Source: a bacterium (GTDB taxonomy: Bacteria > Patescibacteriota > Minisyncoccia > Phycocordibacterales > UBA12079). From it: 64,000 nucleotides of DNA. Positions 1,460 through 60,900 of the stretch are shown one piece after another. Numbering within the stretch: position 1 is the first letter of the stretch; each line of letters opens with the position of its first letter. The translations under genes and the position numbers were made by a program. The notes below the pieces were generated by a model. It saw nothing but the letters and a program-made list of their open reading frames with translations, ran no database searches and was not told the DNA's origin. The stretch covers positions 26,727 to 90,726 of the forward strand of contig JAGYLJ010000002.1 of the NCBI GenBank assembly GCA_018401295.1, given 5' to 3'.

Positions 1460-4400
1460 AAATAATAATTGTTTTAATGGGGATGCTGAGCATCCCCATT
1501 TTTAGTAGTTTTGCTTACGATGATGAGATTACTCATCCTGCTTTGACTCAAGAAATAATTAAATTGTTTGAATCATATTATCCAGAATTTGGATTTAGTG
1601 AGAAAGAGATTAGCCGTATTGAATATGGGAGCCAAGCAGAAGATTCTCCTAATATAAGATGTTTGGCACATTTTTATGATCCTGTTTATGAAACTGGTTT
1701 GTTTGGAAATTTATCAGCCAAACAATGGGCTCTGTCCTCTGTGGCGCAAGGTCTTTTAGATGTTAAATATGATATATTTTTAGCTAATGTCTCTCAGAAT
1801 TTATTTGAATCTGAGACTGATTTTTCTTTTAATAGGGCAGTGTTTGAATATGTGCATGGGTATAAGCTGAGAGGTTTGGAAAGTTTGGGACACACCTTAC
1901 ATCTTCTTGAAGATATGGCCGTGCCTGATCATACAAGGAACGACGACCATGCTTTTGGTTCACCTTATGAGGAATATGCCAAGATGTGGAACAAAGATAA
2001 TATTGATATTGCTGACAACTTGATCGAAAACAGACAAAATCCTGTTGTTTATTCTAATTTAAATGATTATTTTTATAATTTGGCTTTGTTTAGTAATCAA
2101 AACTTTTTTAGCAAGGACACTATTTTTGATAAAAAATATGTAGAGCCGGTTATTGATTATGGAAAAGAAGAAATTTTGAGCGATGGTAGACACTATATCT
2201 TTGGTCATAAGAGGGTTAATAGTAACAAATTAATTAGAATAAAAAGAGAACGTGATATAAATAGCGGTGAGGTATATGAAAGATATTATCTTGATGATAT
2301 TGACAACCTAATCTTCACCGACTACTGGAACACTCTTTCTAAACAAGCTGTATTATACGGAGCAGGAGTTATCAAATTATTTTTTGATGCTGTAGAAGAA
2401 GAGAAGCAAACCCTAGCTTTGTATAAGAAAAATAGGAGTGGTTTTGATGTCGTTGTGGCCGGAGCCACTGATATAGCAAGAAGAATAGCTAAATTGACTT
2501 CAAGTTTGGCGGCGAATGTTAATAGGAGTTTGGGAGGTATCGATAGGCAAGATTTATTAGCAAATATTAGTTCTCAAGAAGAAGATGGTGTAAATGGAGA
2601 GGATTTAGGGGTGGAAATTGTAAGTGAAAGCTTGCAATTTCCACTCCTAAATCCTCCTAGTACCTCTGGTTTAAAACCCGAGGATCCAAATAGTCTTGAA
2701 CTGCAAAGACTCGCTTTAATTTTAAAAGAAGCACAAAAGTTAGTTAATCGCTTAGAAGAAAATATCGGCAATATTCGTGATCAAAACGTCGGAGGCGCTG
2801 GTGATGAAGACCTAATTACTGGTGAAAATGGTAATAATGGGAGTGAGGAAACAGGAAATAAAAATCACCCGGTAATCCAATTACCAAGTGATTTGGTGGG
2901 AAGTAATAATAATTATGGCGGGGGAGGAAGTGGTGGTGGCGGAGTCACCACCATCTCCTCGCCGTCAGTATCGGCAAGCACAGCAAGCGTCACGGTTGCC
3001 ACAACAACCCCCACAGAAACAGCCACCACCACTACCTCTACTGTGACAATTAACCCCCCTATTATAATTTCTCCTTTTAATTTCTCTAGATTTGCTACCA
3101 CTACAATAACTTTTTCGGGAACTGCTTCTTCAACTCAAATTATTTCAACAGATTTTTCCAGTGCCACCACAACTGTTGATCAAAATAACGATTGGGAATT
3201 AAATCTTTCTAATTTTTCACAAGGTACAACCACTTTGGCGTTTTTTGCTAATGACGGCCAAAATACTTCAAGTTCAACTGAAATTGAAATTTTTGTTAAC
3301 TCTACTGCCACAACAACTCCTCTTGTTACCATTGATGCTCCATCTTTAGAGATTAACCAGTGTGATAATTCAATTTCATCATCTTCTTGTTTAATTACTA
3401 CTACAACCCTAGATATCCAGTGGGCGACTAGTTCTCCCTGTACCGATTTTTCTCATTTTAATATTGAAAGTGATGGTGTTTTTTCAACCACCGTTGCCAC
3501 CAGCACTCGGATTACCAATTTAAACGACAATTCTAATTATACTTTTTCGGTGGCGGTGGTTGATATCAATGGAAACGCCTCTGCCACCACCACTCAAATG
3601 GCAATAGTAAGTATTTTACCAGTTGTTATTAATGAAATTGCTTGGGCGGGGACAGATGCTTCCAGTGCTGATGAATGGATTGAACTTTATAATCGTAGTA
3701 ATCGAGATATTGATCTAACAGATTGGGTTCTATATGCAGAAGATTTCTCCCCTGTGATTTCTTTTTCTGAAGCCTCAGACAAAATTATTGAAGCTAGGAG
3801 TTATTATTTGATTGAAAGAACTGATGATACGACCATCAGCGATATTTCTGCTGATTTTACAGCGCCTTTTAGTGGTTGGACAAGTAGTTCGGGCTTATCT
3901 AATAATGGTGAAAATCTTATTTTAGCTTATAAAAAAACTAATCAAGCCACCACGACAGTAGACGAAATCCTTTTTGGAAGTGGTTGGCCCACAGGAGATA
4001 ATTATAGGACATTAGAAAAGTACGATCCAGATTTACCGGGGTCAGAAACAGGGAATTGGGCTTTGTCTATTGGGAAATACATTTTGAATGGTCATGATAG
4101 TAGTGGGGTGACTACAATAAAAGGAACACCAAAAGCTAGAAATAGTATTAATTATAAAATTGCGAAGGAAGATTCTTTGGCTAAAGACAAAATAATTACA
4201 AAAACCAATTCGCCATATTTTGTTGGGATTGACGGGTTAACCATTCAAAGTGGAGTAGTTTTAACCATTGAAGAGGGAGTTATTATTAAATCTGTCCGAT
4301 ACAACAACGCGGATATAATAGTTAATGGTTCTATTCATGCGAACGGCTCAGATAGTGAACCAATTATTTTCACTGCTTTTTCTGATGACATAAATGGAGA

Positions 4401-40085: not shown

Positions 40086-40171
40086 GAAAAAGAGGTCTGA
40101 CCTCGGTAGTGATAGGACAAAATTTAGTGAATAGAGATAACAGTTATCTTATACAAGAGATCGGACCTCGA
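40086..40171. repeat. ~85-nt conserved hairpin element, copy 1
   Basis: Gap-free alignment to 42595-42680, about 70% identical by eye, including AGTGATA and ACAGTTATCTTA blocks. Confidence 0.75.
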
Positions 40172-40324: not shown

Positions 40325-40377
40325 GATCTTATTATATCATTTTGTAGGAGATTGGTAATTTTGGTTGTGGATATTTG

Positions 40378-40448
40378 TTGCCAGACTAGGATTCGAACCT
40401 AGATACCATCCTCCAGAGGGATGTGTCCTACCATTAGACGATCTGGCA
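40378..40448 (-). tRNA. tRNA-Gln (CUG)
   Basis: Hand-folded cloverleaf: acceptor TGCCAGA/TCTGGCA (U1-A72), anticodon loop CTCTGGA, T-arm CTAGGTTCGAATCCTAG; CCA not encoded. Confidence 0.9.
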
Positions 40449-42594: not shown

Positions 42595-42680
42595 GAAAAG
42601 ACGTCCGACCTCAGCAGTGATAAAATGACACGAAGTGGCTAAAGGTTACAGTTATCTTAGTTAAGAGGTCGGACGTCGTC
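42595..42680. repeat. ~85-nt conserved hairpin element, copy 2
   Basis: Perfect 13-bp closing stem GACGTCCGACCTC / GAGGTCGGACGTC; homologous to 40086-40171. Confidence 0.75.
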
Positions 42681-53382: not shown

Positions 53383-54633
53383 TTAGAGATTTAAATTTCC
53401 ATCGGCTTTTAGGCCAACGAGGTCGGTTGCAGTTTGCAACTGACCTTTTTCTTTTAGTTTTAAATATTGGAAATAACCAGCGATACCTATCATAATGGCG
53501 TTATCGGTGGAGAATTCTCTTTCTGGCATTAAAACCTTTAGTTTGGTAATCGGATTACCAAGTGATCGAAAAGCTTGGCGAATTTGAGAGTTGGCTACAA
53601 CGCCACCACCTAAGATTAAGGTTTTTGCGTTAAATTTTTCAAGGGCTTTTTGGGATTTTTTCAAAAGGACTTCTACGACAGCATCTTCAAATTCTTGAGA
53701 GATGGTTTGTTTGGTTTCAAGTGGAATTTCTTTCCAATGATTGGCTTCTTTTAAATTTTTGACCAAATACAAAACAGCGGTTTTGAGACCAGAAAAAGAA
53801 AAATTAAAATCATCGGTATGTATCATCGGTCGTGGTAATTTAATTTCTTGGTTTAATAATTCAGCGCTCGGAGCGCCGAATTTTTCTTCTCGGGCGGTTT
53901 GGGCCAATTTAGATATTTCTGGACCGCCAGGGTAGGGAAGATTCAACATTCGAGCGACTTTATCAAAGGCCTCACCGACAGCATCGTCTAAAGTTTGCCC
54001 AATTTTTTCATACTTCATCCATCCTTTCATTAAAATAAGTTCTGTATGACCACCTGAAATAAGCAATCCAATCATCGGAAATTGAAAATTGGAAATTGAA
54101 AATTCCTTTCCGCTTGCAAAAGATGAAAGGAGATGCCCTTCCATATGATTAACTGGGATGAGTGGTTTTCCCCAAACTAAACTGAGAGTTTTAGCAAAAT
54201 TAATTCCTACCCATAAAGCTGGTTCCAATCCTGGTCCTTGAGTGACTGCAATAGCATCAATTTTAGGAATTTCAATAGTCGGAATATATTCAAGAAATAA
54301 TTTAAGTAATTCAGGCTCTCTCTCTAATATCTTTTCAACTTCAGTCCATTTGGTAATCCGATTACCAAGTGGATTTGATTTGGTAATCGGATTACCAATT
54401 TTTGCCTCGGTGAGAGTTTTGGCGAGAAGGGGTATGAGGTTTTTGGAATGCTCTCGTTTAGCTAAAGCAGGGAAGACACCGCCATATTCTTCGTGAATAT
54501 CAATTTGGGAGATTAAATTATTGGCCAAAATTTTGAATTTAGGCGGATTATTTTCATCACCAAAAGTACCCTCAGCTTCTAAGACACTGATAGCGGTTTC
54601 ATCACAGCTGGTTTCGATAGAAAGGATTTTCAT
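53383..54633 (-). CDS. tsaD: tRNA N6-adenosine threonylcarbamoyltransferase TsaD carrying three in-frame REP insertions
   Basis: GIETSCDET...NHMEGH...SGGHTE...GGGVVAN; peptides GNPITK / GNRITK are encoded by REP copies. Confidence 0.92.
   Translation of the reverse strand: MKILSIETSCDETAISVLEAEGTFGDENNPPKFKILANNLISQIDIHEEYGGVFPALAKREHSKNLIPLLAKTLTEAKIGNPITKSNPLGNRITKWTEVEKILEREPELLKLFLEYIPTIEIPKIDAIAVTQGPGLEPALWVGINFAKTLSLVWGKPLIPVNHMEGHLLSSFASGKEFSISNFQFPMIGLLISGGHTELILMKGWMKYEKIGQTLDDAVGEAFDKVARMLNLPYPGGPEISKLAQTAREEKFGAPSAELLNQEIKLPRPMIHTDDFNFSFSGLKTAVLYLVKNLKEANHWKEIPLETKQTISQEFEDAVVEVLLKKSQKALEKFNAKTLILGGGVVANSQIRQAFRSLGNPITKLKVLMPEREFSTDNAIMIGIAGYFQYLKLKEKGQLQTATDLVGLKADGNLNL
53542..53562. 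repeat. REP-like palindrome inside tsaD (reads LGNPITKL)
   Basis: Exact TTTGGTAATCGGATTACCAAG. Confidence 0.9.
54349..54369. repeat. REP-like palindrome inside tsaD (reads GNRITK)
   Basis: Exact TTTGGTAATCCGATTACCAAG. Confidence 0.9.
54379..54398. repeat. REP-like palindrome inside tsaD (reads GNPITK)
   Basis: Exact TTTGGTAATCGGATTACCAA, 9 nt from the previous copy. Confidence 0.9.
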
Positions 54634-54636
54634 GGG

Positions 54637-55449
54637 TTAAAATGGACTTTTAATTTTCTTAATGGCTGGATTCATAGCATGAGTATAAATTTGGGTTGTT
54701 CTGATGTTAGCATGTCCTAATAATTCTTGCACATATCTAACATCAACTCCGTTTTCTAATAAATGGGTAGCAAAACTGTGTCGCAAAGAATGAAATGTTG
54801 CGTCTTTTTTTATTCCTGATTTTCGTAAGGCATTTTTAAAAACTTTTTGAGCGGTTCGTTCGGTTAATTTTCCACCTCGCTCACTAGTAAAAAAATAATC
54901 ATTGGAATTTTTATTAGCTATTGATTTTTCAACATCTATTATTAACTTTTCCGGAAAAACCGTAATTCTATCTTTATTTCCTTTAGCTCCTTTAATATGA
55001 ATAATTAGTTCCGCTAAATTTATATCTTTAATTTTCAAATTGATAATTTCACTCACGCGCAAACCTCCAGAATATGCTAAAACTATCATTAATTTATGTT
55101 TCTCATTGGAAATCTCCGACAATATTTTCTGAATTTCATCTCGAGACAAAATAATCGGCAATTTATTAGGAGTTTTCGCAAAATGAATATCAATTTTTCC
55201 TTTATATTTCAAAACATTCCAACAAAAAAAATTTATCGCTTGCAAATTTTGATTAGTAGTTTGTGATGACTTCCCTGCATTAATTTTAGAAAGTATATAT
55301 TGCTTAATAAAATTAACATCCACAATTTCAAAATTACTTCTTTTAGCTTTCAGATAATTTTCAACACAAACTGTATATGCTTTTATGGTTTTAGGGCTGT
55401 ATTTTCTCAACTTTAATTCATCTTCTAATTTTTTCAAATAGACGTCCAT
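54637..55449 (-). CDS. Tyrosine recombinase / integrase (XerC/D-like with SAM-like N-domain)
   Basis: R (GLRVSE), HSLRHSFATH, LLGHANIRTTQIYTH; C-terminal ...KIKSPF. Confidence 0.88.
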   Translation of the reverse strand: MDVYLKKLEDELKLRKYSPKTIKAYTVCVENYLKAKRSNFEIVDVNFIKQYILSKINAGKSSQTTNQNLQAINFFCWNVLKYKGKIDIHFAKTPNKLPIILSRDEIQKILSEISNEKHKLMIVLAYSGGLRVSEIINLKIKDINLAELIIHIKGAKGNKDRITVFPEKLIIDVEKSIANKNSNDYFFTSERGGKLTERTAQKVFKNALRKSGIKKDATFHSLRHSFATHLLENGVDVRYVQELLGHANIRTTQIYTHAMNPAIKKIKSPF

Positions 55450-55521
55450 TTATTTTTATGATACAATTAAATTATAATAAAATTATACATAATATTCGTA
55501 AACTTAGCAATATTAAGTATA

Positions 55522-55544
55522 ATATACGAAAACACTTCGTATAT
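55522..55544. promoter_or_regulatory. 23-bp palindrome ATATACGAA-AACAC-TTCGTATAT upstream of the recombinase gene
   Basis: 9-bp arms with a 5-nt spacer; a third related half-site AATATTCGTA lies at 55491-55500. Confidence 0.5.
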
Positions 55545-55621
55545 AAAAGAGTTAGGCGAAATTTTATTCAAAAATATTTTTTAATTTTTATTGAGCCCTT
55601 TTGAAACTTTTTTAGAAAAAG

Positions 55622-55668
55622 AAAAAAGCCCCGTGCGAACTGTTCATTTGAACATTTTAACACGGGGC
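55622..55668 (-). terminator. GC-rich terminator of the cassette gene
   Basis: GCCCCGTG...CACGGGGC followed by a T-run on the minus strand. Confidence 0.7.
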
Positions 55669-55687
55669 GCTGGTGCAGGCGTGGCCT

Positions 55688-56140
55688 CTACTTGTCGACG
55701 GCAATGAGTTCGGCCGGAACAAAAGACCATGTTCCAAGATCTATATACGCATCAACAAGAACAATTTTCTTGCCCTCCCATTCGTATATCTTGCCGATAT
55801 CGTTACACTCACTTGCCGATTTCAAGCAATCAGGGATTGGCTGGCATGAGCTATCATAGCCATCACTGAATGTAAGAATCGGCCAATGAGATGGGATAGC
55901 ACCATATTCGACTAGGTGCCAATCTCCCGGTCCGAATTGATTGTTGTAAGATTCCGCTTCCTGCGCTTTCTTTATCAAAACTGATAACGGAATCGGCCCC
56001 GCCTGCTGTTCGTTTGAAAAGTACTCAGGAAACCGCTCGACTACCATTCGACCAAGGTCAGTGGCAAGGTTAAGCAGTGCCAGCGCCCACATAAAATGGG
56101 TGTCCGTAATCTGGCAAATCGCCTTCCAGTTCTTGTACAT
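55688..56140 (-). CDS. Orphan 150-aa protein of foreign-looking composition
   Basis: ORF track. RBS AAAGGAGG; upstream TTGACA-17-TTAAAT. Much higher G+C by eye than all neighbouring genes. Confidence 0.7.
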   Translation of the reverse strand: MYKNWKAICQITDTHFMWALALLNLATDLGRMVVERFPEYFSNEQQAGPIPLSVLIKKAQEAESYNNQFGPGDWHLVEYGAIPSHWPILTFSDGYDSSCQPIPDCLKSASECNDIGKIYEWEGKKIVLVDAYIDLGTWSFVPAELIAVDK

Positions 56141-56261
56141 ATCTATTCCTCCTTTGTTTGGGTTGATTTTGTCCGAAACTGGTCAGACATAGTATTTAAG
56201 CATATTAGTAAGTTACTGTCAAGCAAACAAAAAAAATTCAAAAGGGCTCTTTTAATAAGGA

Positions 56262-56520
56262 ATATATTTTTGAACAAAACTCAAGCCACGCTGCGCTCTC
56301 GCCCTGCCTCTTTTTTAAAATATAATAAGGAGGGCAGGGCTCGGGTCGTTTAACAAAGAATAAAAGGAGAATGCCTCGGCTCGGCATTTTCCCAAATCCC
56401 ACGCCTTAGTTCTGTGATATAATAGAGCCAGTGCCATTTAACAAGCCTTGAGGATAGTAAAAGTTTTACGTTTTTAGTCGGCGCGGGACTTCTTTTATTC
56501 TTAAACGTTATACGCAATTC
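56262..56520. repeat. Non-coding element X1 (attC-like imperfect palindrome 56347-56507)
   Basis: Block homology to 58128-58320; arms CGTTTAAcaAGAATAAAAG / CTTTTATTCTTAAACG. Confidence 0.6.
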
Positions 56521-56669
56521 AAAAAATATTTTTCTAACGGAGGGTAAGGAATGATAGGCTTTCAAAGGGGAATAAATTTGATTTTTTCTAAAAAGAGGAA
56601 AGGATAATATGGTGTTTTTTCCGCTCCGAAAACGATTTATTTATAAACTTATATTAACTTTATTCGAAT

Positions 56670-58097
56670 ATGAACAAAAAAATCCTAATTTCAATCATTA
56701 TAATTTTAATCCTTACTGCAGGTATTGGTGTATTTTTTGTTTTTCAAAAATCTGTTTTTATTGAAGAAAGTGGTATAACTCCACCAGTAGTTGATTATGA
56801 TGATTCTCCTTTTGGTATAATGGCTGCATTTGACTCTACTACATTGGTTCATATTAATACTCCAAATAAGCTTCAGTGGGCTGGTGAACAGTTTCAAAAT
56901 TTAGGGGCAAAGTTTACAAGAGGTGGTGCCATTAATTTAATCTGGGATGACATTGAACCTGTTCTGGGTCAAGGTTATTATTGGGCTTCTTCTGATGAAT
57001 ACTTAAAATCAATTTATCAATATGGTGGAGATAATGTTGATTATATTCCAGTTATTACTTCATGTAGAGGTAAACAGGTTTCGTGTGATTTGAGTAAGGA
57101 AAATGAGACTTATTTTAGGAACTATGTTAATGCTTTAGTTGAAAGATATGATGGTGATGGGATTGATGATTATAGTCCAATTATAAAAGTCAAATACTGG
57201 CAAGCATATAATGAACCATTTCCCCGAAATTGGGTTGATAGGAGAGGAGGGACAATAAAGGGTTTTGCTAGATTTGTTGAAATTTTATCTAATGCCGTTA
57301 GAGGGGCAGACAATGAGGCTAAAATTATTCTTGGTGCATGTGGGTTAGAAGAAAAGGAATATGTAAAAGAGTTTGATAAAGTAATCACAGAGATGAAAGG
57401 AAAAAATCTTTTTGATTATGTAGATACTCATTATTGGAATCAAGAAAACTATAAAATTAGTAATGTAGATCTTGCAAGAAATATTTTGGATAAGAATGGT
57501 TATTCTAATGCAAAGTTTGTTTCATTGGAATTTGCTTCTTGGAGAGGGCATAGGAATACTGAATATAATGTGGCCAAATATTTAATTAAGGGGTATTTAT
57601 ATAATATTGCCAATGGTTTTTCTTTTATAAACTGGAATAACCTTGTTGAATGGGAGAATTTTGGGGGATATGAAAATAGTCTTTATAATTCAATGGGATT
57701 AATCGCTGATGGAATTAATGATGATGATATTTCAGCCGGGACTTTATTATTGCCATATTATTCTTACAAACTAATGGTTGAAAAACTTGAAGGCTCTGAT
57801 TGGGATAACATCCAAACAATTCAAGAATCAAATGATGTTTATATTTACAAATTTACAAATAAAGAAACTGGAAAATCAACGTGGGTTGCTTGGAATGATA
57901 ATGCGAATTTACAAACAATTACTTTAAACGTCAGAGATATTAAGTCTGTAAAACTCATCGAAGCGGTTCCGAAATATGAAACCGGAAAAGAAATATTAGA
58001 TTACAGTACAGCTTTCAATATAGAAACTAAAAATGTAAACAATAATCAAGTTTCTATAACTTTGGAAGATGTACCAATATTTGTGTTAGGAGATTAA
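56670..58097 (+). CDS. Membrane-anchored glycoside hydrolase, clan GH-A TIM-barrel-like
   Basis: 475 aa; N-terminal TM helix; YWQAYNEP (NEP acid/base motif). Confidence 0.75.
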   Translation: MNKKILISIIIILILTAGIGVFFVFQKSVFIEESGITPPVVDYDDSPFGIMAAFDSTTLVHINTPNKLQWAGEQFQNLGAKFTRGGAINLIWDDIEPVLGQGYYWASSDEYLKSIYQYGGDNVDYIPVITSCRGKQVSCDLSKENETYFRNYVNALVERYDGDGIDDYSPIIKVKYWQAYNEPFPRNWVDRRGGTIKGFARFVEILSNAVRGADNEAKIILGACGLEEKEYVKEFDKVITEMKGKNLFDYVDTHYWNQENYKISNVDLARNILDKNGYSNAKFVSLEFASWRGHRNTEYNVAKYLIKGYLYNIANGFSFINWNNLVEWENFGGYENSLYNSMGLIADGINDDDISAGTLLLPYYSYKLMVEKLEGSDWDNIQTIQESNDVYIYKFTNKETGKSTWVAWNDNANLQTITLNVRDIKSVKLIEAVPKYETGKEILDYSTAFNIETKNVNNNQVSITLEDVPIFVLGD

Positions 58098-58127
58098 TAT
58101 TTTTTTTGAAAAATGAAATTGAATAAA

Positions 58128-58320
58128 AAATATTTTTTGAACTCACTCCACTATGCTCCGTGCCACGCTGTGCTCTCATCCTTTCAGTCGTCGGGGCGTA
58201 TAACAAGGGATATATGGTTCAACCCTCGGCTCGGGCTTCACCCAAATTTTTATTCCACTTCGTTCCAGAAAAACTTCTGATATCCCTAACGTTATGCAAA
58301 ATTTCGCTTCCCGCCAGAGG
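58128..58320. repeat. Non-coding element X2 (attC-like imperfect palindrome 58196-58297)
   Basis: Blocks GCCACGCTGTGCTCTC, GTATAACAAGGGATAT, CCTCGGCTCGG, CCCAAAT and AACGTTATGC are shared with X1. Confidence 0.6.
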
Positions 58321-58518
58321 CGGACAGGCGCTCCATTTTGCATAATGTCCACGCTTAGCAGCGCTGTTCTGCTCAGCAAAGCTTCGCATAACAGCTGCTT
58401 ATCCTAAATTTCTATCGAAAAGAAATCTTTTCTCCAGAAACTTCGGATCAAGCGCGGACATTACATTCAATTGACTCGCCTAAGAAAAATTTATACAAAT
58501 TATACAATTAATAAAAAT

Positions 58519-58941
58519 ATGAATTGGAAAGAATTTTTAAAGCCAAATTTACAAAAATTAAAAGAGACAATCTTATTTGTTTTTCTATTTTATATTTTGA
58601 TTAGTATATTTTTTTTCTTAGGTTCTGGTGTTATAGATGGGGATTGGGCTGTAGACAAATTCTATGTTGAACATCTTTCTCAACTTACAACGTCAGAAGC
58701 AGATTGTGAACGATTACCATCCGGTGTTACTTGGGACTGTCCAGGAGGTGAATTTGACTTCCAAATTATTTTAACTTGGATACTAATATTATTAACAGCT
58801 TATATTGTGAGTTGTTATAAAACACTTTTATTAGTTCAAATACCCAATAGCAAGAAAAAAATTATTTATCGTCTATTAGGAATTTGTATAGGTATTGGAT
58901 TTGTTCTCTTCTTGATAGTAATTTGGGCTATAAATAATTAA
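58519..58941 (+). CDS. Hypothetical membrane protein
   Basis: Start MNWKEF at 58519 (track ORF from 58471); 3 hydrophobic helices. Confidence 0.55.
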   Translation: MNWKEFLKPNLQKLKETILFVFLFYILISIFFFLGSGVIDGDWAVDKFYVEHLSQLTTSEADCERLPSGVTWDCPGGEFDFQIILTWILILLTAYIVSCYKTLLLVQIPNSKKKIIYRLLGICIGIGFVLFLIVIWAINN

Positions 58942-59106
58942 AACTGATTCTTTTTCTTGATATGCAAAAACCTAAACCAAACCTTGCGTCATACTGTCGG
59001 TTGCTTTATAGGATTGCCACATAACAGTGATTATTTGTGATTTTCCTGCCGAAAATTCCCGAACTCTGCTACACAGAACTTCAGATAATTCCGATGTTAA
59101 AAAGTG

Positions 59107-59190
59107 CGGTGGATACAGGACTCGAACCTGTAAGGGCTTTCACCCGACGCATTTCGAATGCGCTGCCTTACCAATTCGGCGCAATCCACC
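59107..59190 (-). tRNA. tRNA-Ser (CGA)
   Basis: Hand-folded: acceptor GGTGGAT/ATCCACC, discriminator G, anticodon loop TTCGAAA, long variable arm GGGTGAAAGCCC, T-arm ACAGGTTCGAGTCCTGT. Confidence 0.88.
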
Positions 59191-59332: not shown

Positions 59333-59436
59333 CAAAACGTTAAGAAAAAGTAAACCGCTTTACTTTTTTGGTTTTGTGGAGGCGGAGCGATGTTTTTGCT
59401 TCCACCCAGAAGCAAAAACCGCGAGCCGTGGATAAA

Positions 59437-59520
59437 AAACAAACTGCTTTGTTTTTTATCCGGTTTTTGCACAGCAAAAAATTTCCTTTATTGAGCAAAG
59501 CGAAATAGGAAATAGGCGGG
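59437..59520 (+). repeat. Three-hairpin module, copy A (105 nt downstream of tRNA-Glu)
   Basis: About 80% identical by eye to 60519-60612, with compensatory stem changes. Confidence 0.75.
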
Positions 59521-60427: not shown

Positions 60428-60900
60428 AAATTGGTGGGCGATAAGTAAGCCAATTGCTTGGCTTACGTCAGGATTCGAAAGTCGGAATATATTGCGAGCG
60501 ATAGCGAGTAATAATGAGACGGGGATAAAAAACAAACTACTTTGTTTTTTATCCGATTTTTCTGAAAGAGAAAATTTCTTATATCGAGCGAAGCGAGATA
60601 GGAAATAGGAGGACGCGAACACTTAATAGATTTCGAGCGAAGCGAAGAAATCTATTTAGTGATTTGTGATCGAATCCTGACTGGTTTATATTTGCCCACA
60701 AAATCTTAAGTCCTAAAGCGTTAGCTTTGAGACTTTTGATTTTGTCGTGACGATACAGGGTTCGAACCGAGCGAATATATTTTTCTGTAGCGAAGCGAAA
60801 GAAAAATTTGAGAGAGCGGAGGTCAAGGGATTGAGATATTTTTGGAGCGAAGCGAACAAAAATATCCATGAGAGTGACCGAATCCTATTTCCACCCCACC
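60428..60900. repeat. Array of degenerate tRNA-Val 3'-end copies in alternating orientation, interleaved with GAGCGAAGCGA-loop hairpins
   Basis: Inverted copies at 60428-60478 and 60738-60770; direct copies at 60661-60700 and 60868-60900. Hairpins at 60574-60606, 60625-60656, 60779-60807 and 60835-60866. Confidence 0.7.
60519..60612 (+). repeat. Three-hairpin module, copy B (112 nt downstream of tRNA-Val)
   Basis: GGATAAAAAACAAACTACTTTGTTTTTTATCC plus two further hairpins, homologous to copy A. Confidence 0.75.

Follow-up and report, generated by a model that had tools for sequence, protein, structure and literature searches.

Are two related, palindromic non-coding segments that flank a single gene beside a tyrosine recombinase the sites of a gene-cassette array, and, if so, is that array an integron? 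The locus that raises this question lies in a 64,000-nucleotide stretch of DNA (the window) from a bacterium of the Patescibacteriota, order Phycocordibacterales (GenBank assembly GCA_018401295.1, contig JAGYLJ010000002.1, positions 26,727 to 90,726). A preliminary description, made from the sequence without database searches, had likened the two segments, X1 and X2, to the attC sites of integrons. We are fairly confident that the region from 54.6 to 59.1 kb of the window is an integron-like gene-capture platform. It is not a canonical integron, because its recombinase lacks the IntI-specific domain; this had been raised as a caveat, correctly so by alignment and by NCBIfam models. The recombinase gene points leftward, an attI-like site lies approximately 100 nt upstream of its start, and cassettes follow to the right. 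Each cassette starts with the TT of a GTT core and ends in an attC-like site, the final base of which supplies the G (or A) of the core that follows. Four such cassettes lie between attI (55534–55562) and a tRNA-Ser gene, in the following order:

54637–55449, minus strand: tyrosine recombinase of 270 aa, putative cassette integrase (Pfam Phage_integrase and SAM_4).
55534–55562, plus strand: attI-like or dif-like site, ACTTCGTATAT-AAAAGA-GTTAGGCGAAAT, with the putative crossover at G55551|T55552.
55552–56507, plus strand: cassette 1, a reversed open reading frame (ORF) of 150 aa (55688–56140, minus strand) and X1; boundaries taken from the attI and X1 crossover points.
56262–56513, plus strand: X1, attC-like, long variant (nhmmer E=4e-17; fold z -4.0 and -3.2), made up of a 5' bulged hairpin (56285–56347), R'' (56348–54), L'' (56357–66), hairpin A (56370–88), CCCAAAT (56391–97), L' (56492–56501) and R' (56507–13).
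56508–58291, plus strand: cassette 2, a leader (56508–56650), an ORF of 475 aa (56670–58097) and X2; it ends in …CCCTAACG, and its own start is TTATACGCAATTC….
58126–58297, plus strand: X2, attC-like, common short type (93.5% identical to positions 1216–1385 of the viral contig L012, the homology ending at GTTAT), made up of a 5' module (58162–58197), R'' (58198–204), L'' (58207–15), hairpin A with the loop TCGGCTC, CCCAAAT (58241–47), hairpin B, L' (58280–86) and R' (58291–97).
58292–58460, plus strand: cassette 3, ORF-less, with a variant att site, Y, ending GGACA|TTA.
58461–59097, plus strand: cassette 4, a predicted membrane protein of 140 aa (58519–58941) and the divergent site X3.
59018–59103: X3, with R'' CACATAAC at 59018–25 and R' GTTAAAA at 59097–103.
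59106–59190, minus strand: tRNA-Ser(CGA), the distal end of the array (ARAGORN and Rfam).

Shared Blocks and Palindromes in X1 and X2

The sequence blocks reported as common to X1 and X2 were all present, far above chance. Within the window, GCCACGCTG[C/T]GCTCTC occurs at 56285 and 58162 (two matches, 0.03 expected), the 16-mer GCCACGCTGYGCTCTC occurs at 56285 and 58162 only (again 0.03 expected), and CCTCGGCTCGG..CCCAAAT is confined to 56374 and 58224 (two matches versus 0.00 expected). Positions 56341–56397 and 58191–58247 align without a gap at 74% identity, and AACGTTAT recurs at 56504–56511 in X1 and 58288–58295 in X2. The long imperfect palindromes are also real: AGAATAAAAG (56357–66) pairs with CTTTTATTCT (56492–56501) in X1, and GGGATAT (58207–13) pairs with ATATCCC (58280–86) in X2, while the inner hairpin keeps its TCGGCTC loop and has an altered stem. 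Both segments are non-coding and GC-richer than their surroundings in an AT-rich window (approximately 33% GC), and their RNA folds, which include these palindromes, beat those of shuffled sequences (z -3.2 to -5.0).

The preliminary description needed correction in several details. The pairing register, said to differ between X1 and X2, is the same in both when the R boxes are read correctly: R'' is GTTTAAC in X1 (56348–54) and GTATAAC in X2 (58198–204), and R' is GTTATAC (56507–13) and GTTATGC (58291–97), respectively. X2, drawn as far as 58320, really ends at approximately 58297, and 58298–58320 belongs to the next cassette. X1 is a long variant in which an insertion replaces the second inner hairpin, and the same variant was found at four other loci (L044, L107, L130, and L131). 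The proposed cassettes themselves were borne out in an array longer than had been described, now including the attI-like site, an ORF-less cassette, and a divergent third site.

A Family of Sites with a Conserved Fold

Further copies of X were found by the hundreds. GTDB genomes were scanned with a fixed-spacing pattern, TAACAA-N19-TCGGCTC-N8-CCCAAAT (20 specified bases), which matched at least 120 genome stretches where, by our own estimate, one or two would be expected by chance. A profile search with nhmmer located 203 sites in 122 sources. Scans of viral contigs with three patterns gave a sole true relative, L012; the 16-mer alone also gave 16 chance matches in GC-rich contigs. No credible match to a known RNA family was obtained: at the gathering threshold, Rfam 15 (which has no attC family) returned only four tRNAs, and with E up to 10 it returned nothing credible in 55.4–59.7 kb.

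All pattern matches share one architecture. From 5' to 3', a bulged hairpin around the invariant ACGCTGCGCT is followed by R'' ending in TAAC, a 2-nt spacer, the 9-nt L'', hairpin A with its invariant loop TCGGCTC, the unpaired CCCAAAT, hairpin B, ACTTC, L', a 4-nt spacer, and R' starting with GTT. The AAC and GTT cores are nearly invariant, and R'' and R' fit RYYYAAC/GTTRRRY or are one base off. In an alignment of 81 sites (A3, with X2 as its first row), RNAalifold predicted 22 pairs, of which 17 show compensatory changes. A structure of 36 pairs was then written by hand and counted on the same alignment; 93.5% of its cells were paired versus 79.5% in shuffles, and its covariation score of 0.365 (0.127 shuffled) was reached by 0 of 500 shuffles. 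When the partner was slid by 1–3 columns as a control, covariation was at most 0.10. The R, L, and inner helices of X are 82–99% paired and covary. The outer pairs of the R box are 65–70% paired within a site, as predicted by exchange at G|TT. The 5' hairpin draws on a CC/GG to GG/CC swap (60 sequences versus 18) and a C-G to T-A swap (53 versus 18), and it is less secure, as these swaps are essentially two haplotypes.

The fold departs from that of a canonical attC. L'' and L' are 9 nt each and 96% paired with no bulge column, and the spacer is asymmetric (2 nt versus 4 nt). With no bulged base in its L box, X therefore has no counterpart of the extrahelical bases read by I2 in canonical attC sites, and the 81-site alignment does not show the combination of extrahelical bases and an unpaired central spacer that marks a folded attC.

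Cassette Boundaries and Content

Sites of the X family lie in arrays. Fifty loci (at most 8 kb) have two or more, and one (L021) has eight. Adjacent sites are co-oriented in 85 pairs and opposed in 3, with a median gap of 919 bp, and in 73 of 80 intervals between sites the largest ORF points the same way as the site.

The boundaries can be read from L012, which shares exactly two non-coding pieces with the window: X2 (58126–58295, 93.5%) and the leader (56507–56647, 85%). Between this leader and X, L012 carries an 845-aa type IIG restriction-modification gene in place of the 475-aa ORF, and on both sides the homology starts and stops at GTTAT. X is thus not a duplicated untranslated region (UTR) kept with its gene, an outcome that the preliminary description had named as speaking against its proposal; it had named three of these, all were examined, and none was found. 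L012 is an IMG/VR contig (UViG_3300001335_000566) of 71 kb, classed as viral, with a DnaB-like helicase and an RNA ligase. Its restriction-modification cassette is preceded, at 4217–4260, by a minimal site, GTTAACAAAGTGTTATCATATACACAA|GTTATACGC, and no full X. No recombinase was found within the 9 kb of L012 examined, and the cassette may be inserted at a secondary site in a phage or plasmid.

In an integron, the G with which a cassette's attC closes was formerly linked to the first bases of that same cassette (TTNNNN…). Because of this earlier junction, these bases are expected to complement the R'' of the cassette's own downstream site, as opposed to the R'' of the site that they abut at present. 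In a circular-unit test on 55 adjacent site pairs, with coordinates anchored by a hidden Markov model, the 6 nt after GTT were compared with the reverse complement of the R'' flank. They matched the next site at 4.36 of 6 positions and the abutting site at 3.55, against a random value of 3.24 +/- 0.14. Among 37 discriminating pairs, the next site won 24 to 7, and perfect 6/6 matches numbered 16 for the next site versus 1 for the abutting one. Two cassettes of the window behave in the same way: cassette 2 starts with TTATACGC, the exact complement of the R'' flank GCGTATAA in its own X2, and the start of cassette 3, TTATGCAAAAT, complements TTTTGCATAA in its own site. These sequence relationships are what a circularisable unit would leave behind.

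Pfam and PDB sequence searches found no relatives of the cargo. As the preliminary description had noted, the first cassette gene is reversed, the 150-aa ORF being on the minus strand. Cassette 1 has its own terminator hairpin at approximately 55625–55660. Its ORF is likely of foreign origin, because the segment 55600–56150 has 45–52% GC versus approximately 33% for the genome and window, and because no family or homologue was found for it in Pfam and PDB searches. The label of glycoside hydrolase that had been given to the 475-aa ORF could not be confirmed, with no match in Pfam (E up to 10) or in PDB sequence searches. The Y site of the ORF-less cassette 3 has a 13-bp outer stem (AATGTCCACGCTT/AAGCGCGGACATT) and is strongly structured (z approximately -5), and the cassette 3 segment is also present at L130 and L111. 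Positions 59018–59098, X3, are common to L049, L126, and L132, and the X profile matches the L126 copy; X3 was delimited by eye and has a weak single-sequence fold, and its assignment is the least certain part of the map.

The leader of cassette 2 is a recurrent element in its own right. This sequence of 140 nt (56508–56650 in the window; 4069–4216 in L012) begins exactly at the crossover and stands ahead of unrelated ORFs in approximately 20 other cassettes, where it lies directly 3' of R'. Its conserved features are a mini-ORF (MIGFQRGINLIFS…), TTGATTTTTTC…GGGGGATAATAT, and a hairpin, GTTTTC-(CCGCTTCGCTCC)-GAAAAC, that carries a mini-hairpin motif of the X type. The leader could be a promoter, or it could be part of the site in the circular cassette.

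The Recombinase and the attI-Like Site

The 270-aa recombinase is XerA-like in architecture and IntI-like in sequence, being as close to IntI as to XerA. The archaeal XerA model of NCBIfam (XerA_Arch, NF040815) scored 221.8 bits, just over its cut-off of 220, and the XerD and XerC models scored 185 and 180, both far below their cut-offs. The IntI model TIGR02249 scored 213 bits (cut-off 265) in two pieces that skip approximately profile positions 181–237; for the recombinase of one related locus (L039), it gave the top score. Aligned with the Vibrio cholerae integrase VchIntIA (2A3V), residues 5–178 and 194–269 correspond to 6–182 and 241–316, leaving 15 aa where IntI has 58; the alignment to the XerA structures 5HXY and 4A8E is unbroken. 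Thirteen homologues all conserve the catalytic R, K, H, R, H, and Y, and none carries extra residues where the additional (I2) domain would lie.

Linkage of this enzyme to the arrays was apparent when searched from either side. From the side of X, phmmer searches of all ORFs in the X loci identified close homologues in approximately 19 of approximately 120 loci (E 1e-102 to 1e-9), archaeal loci included, and in 18 of the 19 the recombinase gene is upstream of, and divergent from, the sites. Among these homologues, none was an IntI-type protein with the additional domain. From the side of the recombinase, metagenome contigs were scanned with the recombinase alignment. Twelve relatives of 50% identity or higher had 800 bp or more of sequence upstream of the gene; X was found there in 10 of them, with all 17 sites on the predicted strand. 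Relatives below approximately 43% identity mostly have neither X nor an attI-like site.

An attI-like site of the form …TTCG(T/C)ATA(T/A)-N6-|GTTRNNNNNAAT occurs 70–150 nt upstream of the recombinase ATG in approximately 17 of 19 genome loci, with a cassette ORF behind it, and also in most close metagenomic relatives. These sites were found by reading the sequences, inverted-repeat scoring having been swamped by AT-rich noise. The site in the window is an imperfect, dif-like 11-6-11 palindrome with 7 of 11 symmetric positions (8 of 11 for the L119 site) by hand count. Its homologous counterpart in X is the 3' half, ACTTCGTATAT-CCCTGAC-GTTATACGCAAT.

Variation in cassette content between strains was revealed by six contigs from the European Nucleotide Archive (ENA; L220–L225) that carry a recombinase of the same 90% cluster. 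They match the window only at 54641–55554 (recombinase and attI, 95.7%) and 58291–58463 (98.8%). The recombinase gene is thus 95.7% identical and attI is identical, and different cassettes follow G|TT. Four of the six contigs end exactly at …AAAAGAGTTAT. In L221 and L222, the segment corresponding to 58292–58460 of the window stands directly behind attI after G|TT, and the sequences then diverge at GGACA|TTA. Because these contigs share this segment and diverge beyond it, we read it as an ORF-less cassette with a variant site. The cassettes beyond it comprise an unknown ORF (L221) or two NUDIX genes (L222), and an X-like site with GTTATCGGAAAT or GTTATATGACAT after it closes each one. At the other end of the module, homology between the ENA contigs and the window ends at the stop codon of the recombinase, giving way to a pseudouridine synthase/L19/Mur cluster in the contigs versus TsaD and valyl-tRNA synthetase in the window. 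Because the gene beyond the recombinase differs (pseudouridine synthase versus TsaD), the recombinase-attI platform itself seems to have been horizontally transferred or relocated. Contigs of the same organism in Logan (SRR14300308; L001/L226) were too fragmented for polymorphism to be assessed, and L001 ends at 56579, inside the leader. Arrays are probably under-represented in metagenome-assembled genomes (MAGs), because the sites act as assembly breakpoints (the leader at 56579 and the attI crossover).

Proposed Mechanism

A mechanism of the integron type would run as follows. The cassette would be excised as a circle, and one strand of its site, probably the bottom strand, would fold into a hairpin whose R''/R' and L''/L' boxes reconstitute an attI-like, two-armed binding site for the recombinase. 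At G|TT, a single strand would then be exchanged by the enzyme, the partner being either attI or a further site. The product would probably be resolved by replication, as in attC × attI recombination of integrons and in the integration of single-stranded CTX-phage DNA by Xer, because the central regions of the partner sites differ.

As to which strand folds, and whether as DNA or RNA, the apices of hairpin B, the 5' hairpin, and the leader hairpin all carry a 7-nt motif, N1N2-TNC-N2'N1' on the top strand, whose outer pairs covary (A-T or G-C; C-G or T-A). On the bottom strand, the motif is N N G-N-A N N, a GNA triloop of the d(GCGNAGC) mini-hairpin class. According to a review (PMC13037366), this mini-hairpin is formed by GNA triloops only and is found at single-strand DNA origins. 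With DNA parameters, folding of X2 produces the R and L stems on the bottom strand, at -17.2 kcal/mol; the top strand, at -12.3 kcal/mol, folds without them. A folded bottom-strand DNA substrate, as in integrons, is favoured.

Several considerations weigh against this account. That strands are exchanged, that the substrate is folded, and which strand is chosen are deductions from sequence. The mechanism of integrons is not simply transferable, because the integrase has no counterpart of the domain that canonical IntI needs for folded attC, and ordinary double-strand recombination is possible, because the 3' half of X is a complete duplex dif-like site. In single-sequence folding with DNA parameters, the energies are only slightly more favourable than those of shuffled sequences (z -1.5 and -1.7). 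The X3 site and the ORF-less Y cassette were identified visually and by homology, and, since many loci come from MAGs, mis-binning can inflate the apparent host range.

Alternative Explanations

The serious rival is a housekeeping Xer/dif system, because both the enzyme and attI look Xer/dif-like. The recombinase would be a dimer resolvase, attI would be the chromosomal dif, and the cassettes would be parasites resembling integrative mobile elements exploiting Xer (IMEXs), piling up at dif as CTX, TLC, and RS1 do in Vibrio. The simple XerA architecture, with the cut-off of the XerA model just passed, the 11-6-11 dif layout of attI, and the tight packing of the recombinase gene against housekeeping genes all fit such a system. 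It also has a precedent for the use of a folded substrate in the CTX phage, in which Xer can act on a folded single-stranded DNA hairpin that mimics dif, by single-strand exchange. However, cumulative GC skew rises almost steadily through the 64 kb, and the skew is positive over nearly all of the window (-0.01 to -0.03 in two intervals near 50–56 kb), with no lasting switch in this window. The 95.7% identity of recombinase and attI in organisms with different flanks points to horizontal transfer of the module, and the association of attI with X is confined to one recombinase clade. The inserted genes, moreover, are single and for the most part ORFans, and, like integron cassettes, they carry no replication or transfer functions. 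We consider the Xer/dif explanation unlikely.

A second possibility is that the conserved elements act at the RNA level: X would terminate or stabilise transcripts as part of the 3'-UTR, the leader would serve as promoter or 5'-UTR, and homologous recombination would shuffle these modules between genes, as with the promoter-early stem-loop (PeSL) cassettes of T4-type phages. X stands behind co-oriented ORFs and the leader ahead of them, the structures are stable as RNA (z -4 to -5), and conserved flanks around variable genes are typical of such cassettes. Against this, there was no match to an Rfam family and no T-run behind the stems, and a promoter and terminator scan of 55.4–59.25 kb remained at the level of shuffles. 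The breakpoints fall at a single phosphodiester (G|TT), outside the homologous flanks; the cassette start complements its own distal R'', which homologous shuffling does not predict; and the tight linkage to recombinase and attI, as well as the GNA type of the triloop on the antisense strand, also count against it. This makes an RNA function of the shuffled modules very improbable. We give equally little credence to an ordinary array of the CALIN type (cluster of attC sites lacking integron-integrases), in which X would be a lineage-specific attC served by a canonical IntI encoded elsewhere and the short recombinase would be a bystander. The R''/R' cores do fit RYYYAAC/GTTRRRY or come within one base of it, most archaeal and many bacterial arrays are CALINs, and archaeal integrons with a true IntI exist in DPANN (PMC9668308). 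However, a bystander would not be expected to lie adjacent to and divergent from the sites, with a conserved attI before the first cassette, as in 18 of 19 and 10 of 12 loci. The resemblance of attI to the 3' half of X, the lack of any IntI with the additional domain among the recombinase homologues of X loci, and sites without the extrahelical bases that IntI reads speak against it as well. An island integrated at tRNA-Ser was also considered and rejected: the region has its recombinase at the far end, and its interior is organised as a cassette array.

Comparison with Known Systems

The integron-like platform proposed here resembles integrons in that the integrase gene diverges from the array with attI adjacent, and in that the co-oriented, mostly one-ORF cassettes each end in an R''(…AAC)-L''…L'-R'(GTT…) palindrome. 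The crossover at G|TT, cassettes that start TT…, a bottom strand that seems to be the folded one, strain-variable cassette content, and cargo of mostly ORFans are further likenesses. Unlike the pair of VchIntIA and the V. cholerae repeat (VCR; 2A3V), however, the enzyme has 15 aa in place of the additional (I2) domain of approximately 58 aa, and the X sites have no extrahelical bases and an R box of approximately 9 bp. The sequence of X is highly conserved across phyla and domains, and it carries a conserved three-way junction, invariant unpaired motifs (TCGGCTC, CCCAAAT, and ACTTC), and an extra 5' bulged hairpin. The attI here is a plain dif-like 11-6-11 palindrome, and many cassettes share the 140-nt leader.

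Archaeal integrons, described by Ghaly et al. in 2022 (PMC9668308), form arrays in DPANN and other archaea, most without a recognisable IntI. For their attC sites, near-identity between the two domains was reported, and transfer across the domains was proposed. The X system likewise has arrays in DPANN and near-identical sites across domains. In contrast, the archaeal integrons were defined by the canonical attC model and an IntI with the additional domain, and neither bacteria of the candidate phyla radiation (CPR) nor a short Xer-like integrase is mentioned in that work. The X motifs were not found in three supplementary files of that work; the attC set of the paper lay outside this search.

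Among Xer/dif systems, XerA (5HXY, 4A8E) provides the best structural and sequence relatives of the recombinase, and attI has the dif layout. The IMEX CTX phage offers integration via a folded single-stranded DNA hairpin that mimics dif. Unlike these, the locus shows no GC-skew switch at the site, it comprises single-gene cassette arrays rather than phages or genomic islands, and its recombinase-attI module appears to have been horizontally transferred. The pdif modules of Acinetobacter plasmids are also small gene modules bounded by Xer-type sites and shuffled between replicons. Their flanking sites are in alternating, inverted orientation, and pdif modules are not known to have a long folded palindrome, whereas X sites are co-oriented (85 versus 3) and strongly structured.

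Other Repeats in the Window

Three further repeats were observed in the window. A 97-nt repeat (82% identical) at 59423–59519 and 60516–60612 lies behind tRNA-Glu and tRNA-Val and includes a hairpin, GGATAAAAAACAAACTNCTTTGTTTTTTATCC; near it is a weak partial match to the X profile (60780–60817, minus strand, E=3e-4). A perfect 20-nt palindrome, TTTGGTAATC(C/G)GATTACCAA, is present in five copies (523–590, 53530–53561, and 54337–54398), three of which fall within or beside the gene for TsaD, immediately downstream of the recombinase gene. At 40088–40170 and 42596–42678, an 83-nt repeat (73% identical) with terminal GGTCNGACCTCG motifs flanks the region of tRNA-Gln (40377–40448).

Distribution and Significance

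Hosts of the pattern matches, among the matches listed, include many lineages of Patescibacteria/CPR and DPANN (Woese-, Pace-, and Nanoarchaeota), and further hosts, also among those listed, are Omnitrophota, anaerobic methanotrophic archaea (ANME)/Methanosarcinales, Thermoplasmatota, and others. Sites of Woesearchaeota and Magasanikbacteria are nearly identical over approximately 135 nt, and such near-identity between CPR and DPANN sites points to recent exchange of cassettes across domains. At L093, the gene for aIF2-gamma, an archaeal/eukaryotic factor, is 3 kb from a unit of recombinase, attI, cassette, and X, which makes the archaeal placement of this locus more secure than the host labels of MAGs. 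Several other loci are on contigs of 100–800 kb from CPR or DPANN genomes. A BLAST search with X2 gave no match in PLSDB plasmids or GenBank phages.

In the literature searched, no account of such a system came up for integrons or attC in connection with Patescibacteria, CPR, or DPANN. In a survey of tyrosine recombinases (Smyshlyaev et al., PMC8138268), Xer-like proteins of candidate phyla were grouped as "Cand", with a Xer role assumed. Integron integrases are thought to derive from Xer-type recombinases by gain of the I2 helix, which enabled the reading of folded attC (PMC4792948, PMC7790495). The system described here would work like an integron and falls outside integrons on the integrase domain and the extrahelical bases. 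It would also escape the usual definition of a complete integron, which demands the IntI-specific domain. Tentatively, and at slightly less than even chances, we suggest that it is a "proto-integron", a separate lineage of cassette platforms in which an I2-less, XerA-like integrase recombines folded, multi-domain attC-like sites with a dif-like attI. Such a lineage would stand between Xer/dif and integrons, either as a natural intermediate or as an invention made independently, and, being near-identical in CPR and DPANN, it would be a conduit for inter-domain gene exchange among episymbionts.

If this is true, the combination of cassettes, attI, and folded sites in the absence of the I2 helix would make the transition from Xer to integrons directly testable, and it would represent another route by which a tyrosine recombinase can recognise structured single-stranded DNA. 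Such platforms would account for the variable islands, rich in ORFans, of CPR and DPANN genomes, and they would provide a concrete mechanism of gene flow between ultra-small bacteria and archaea that share habitats.

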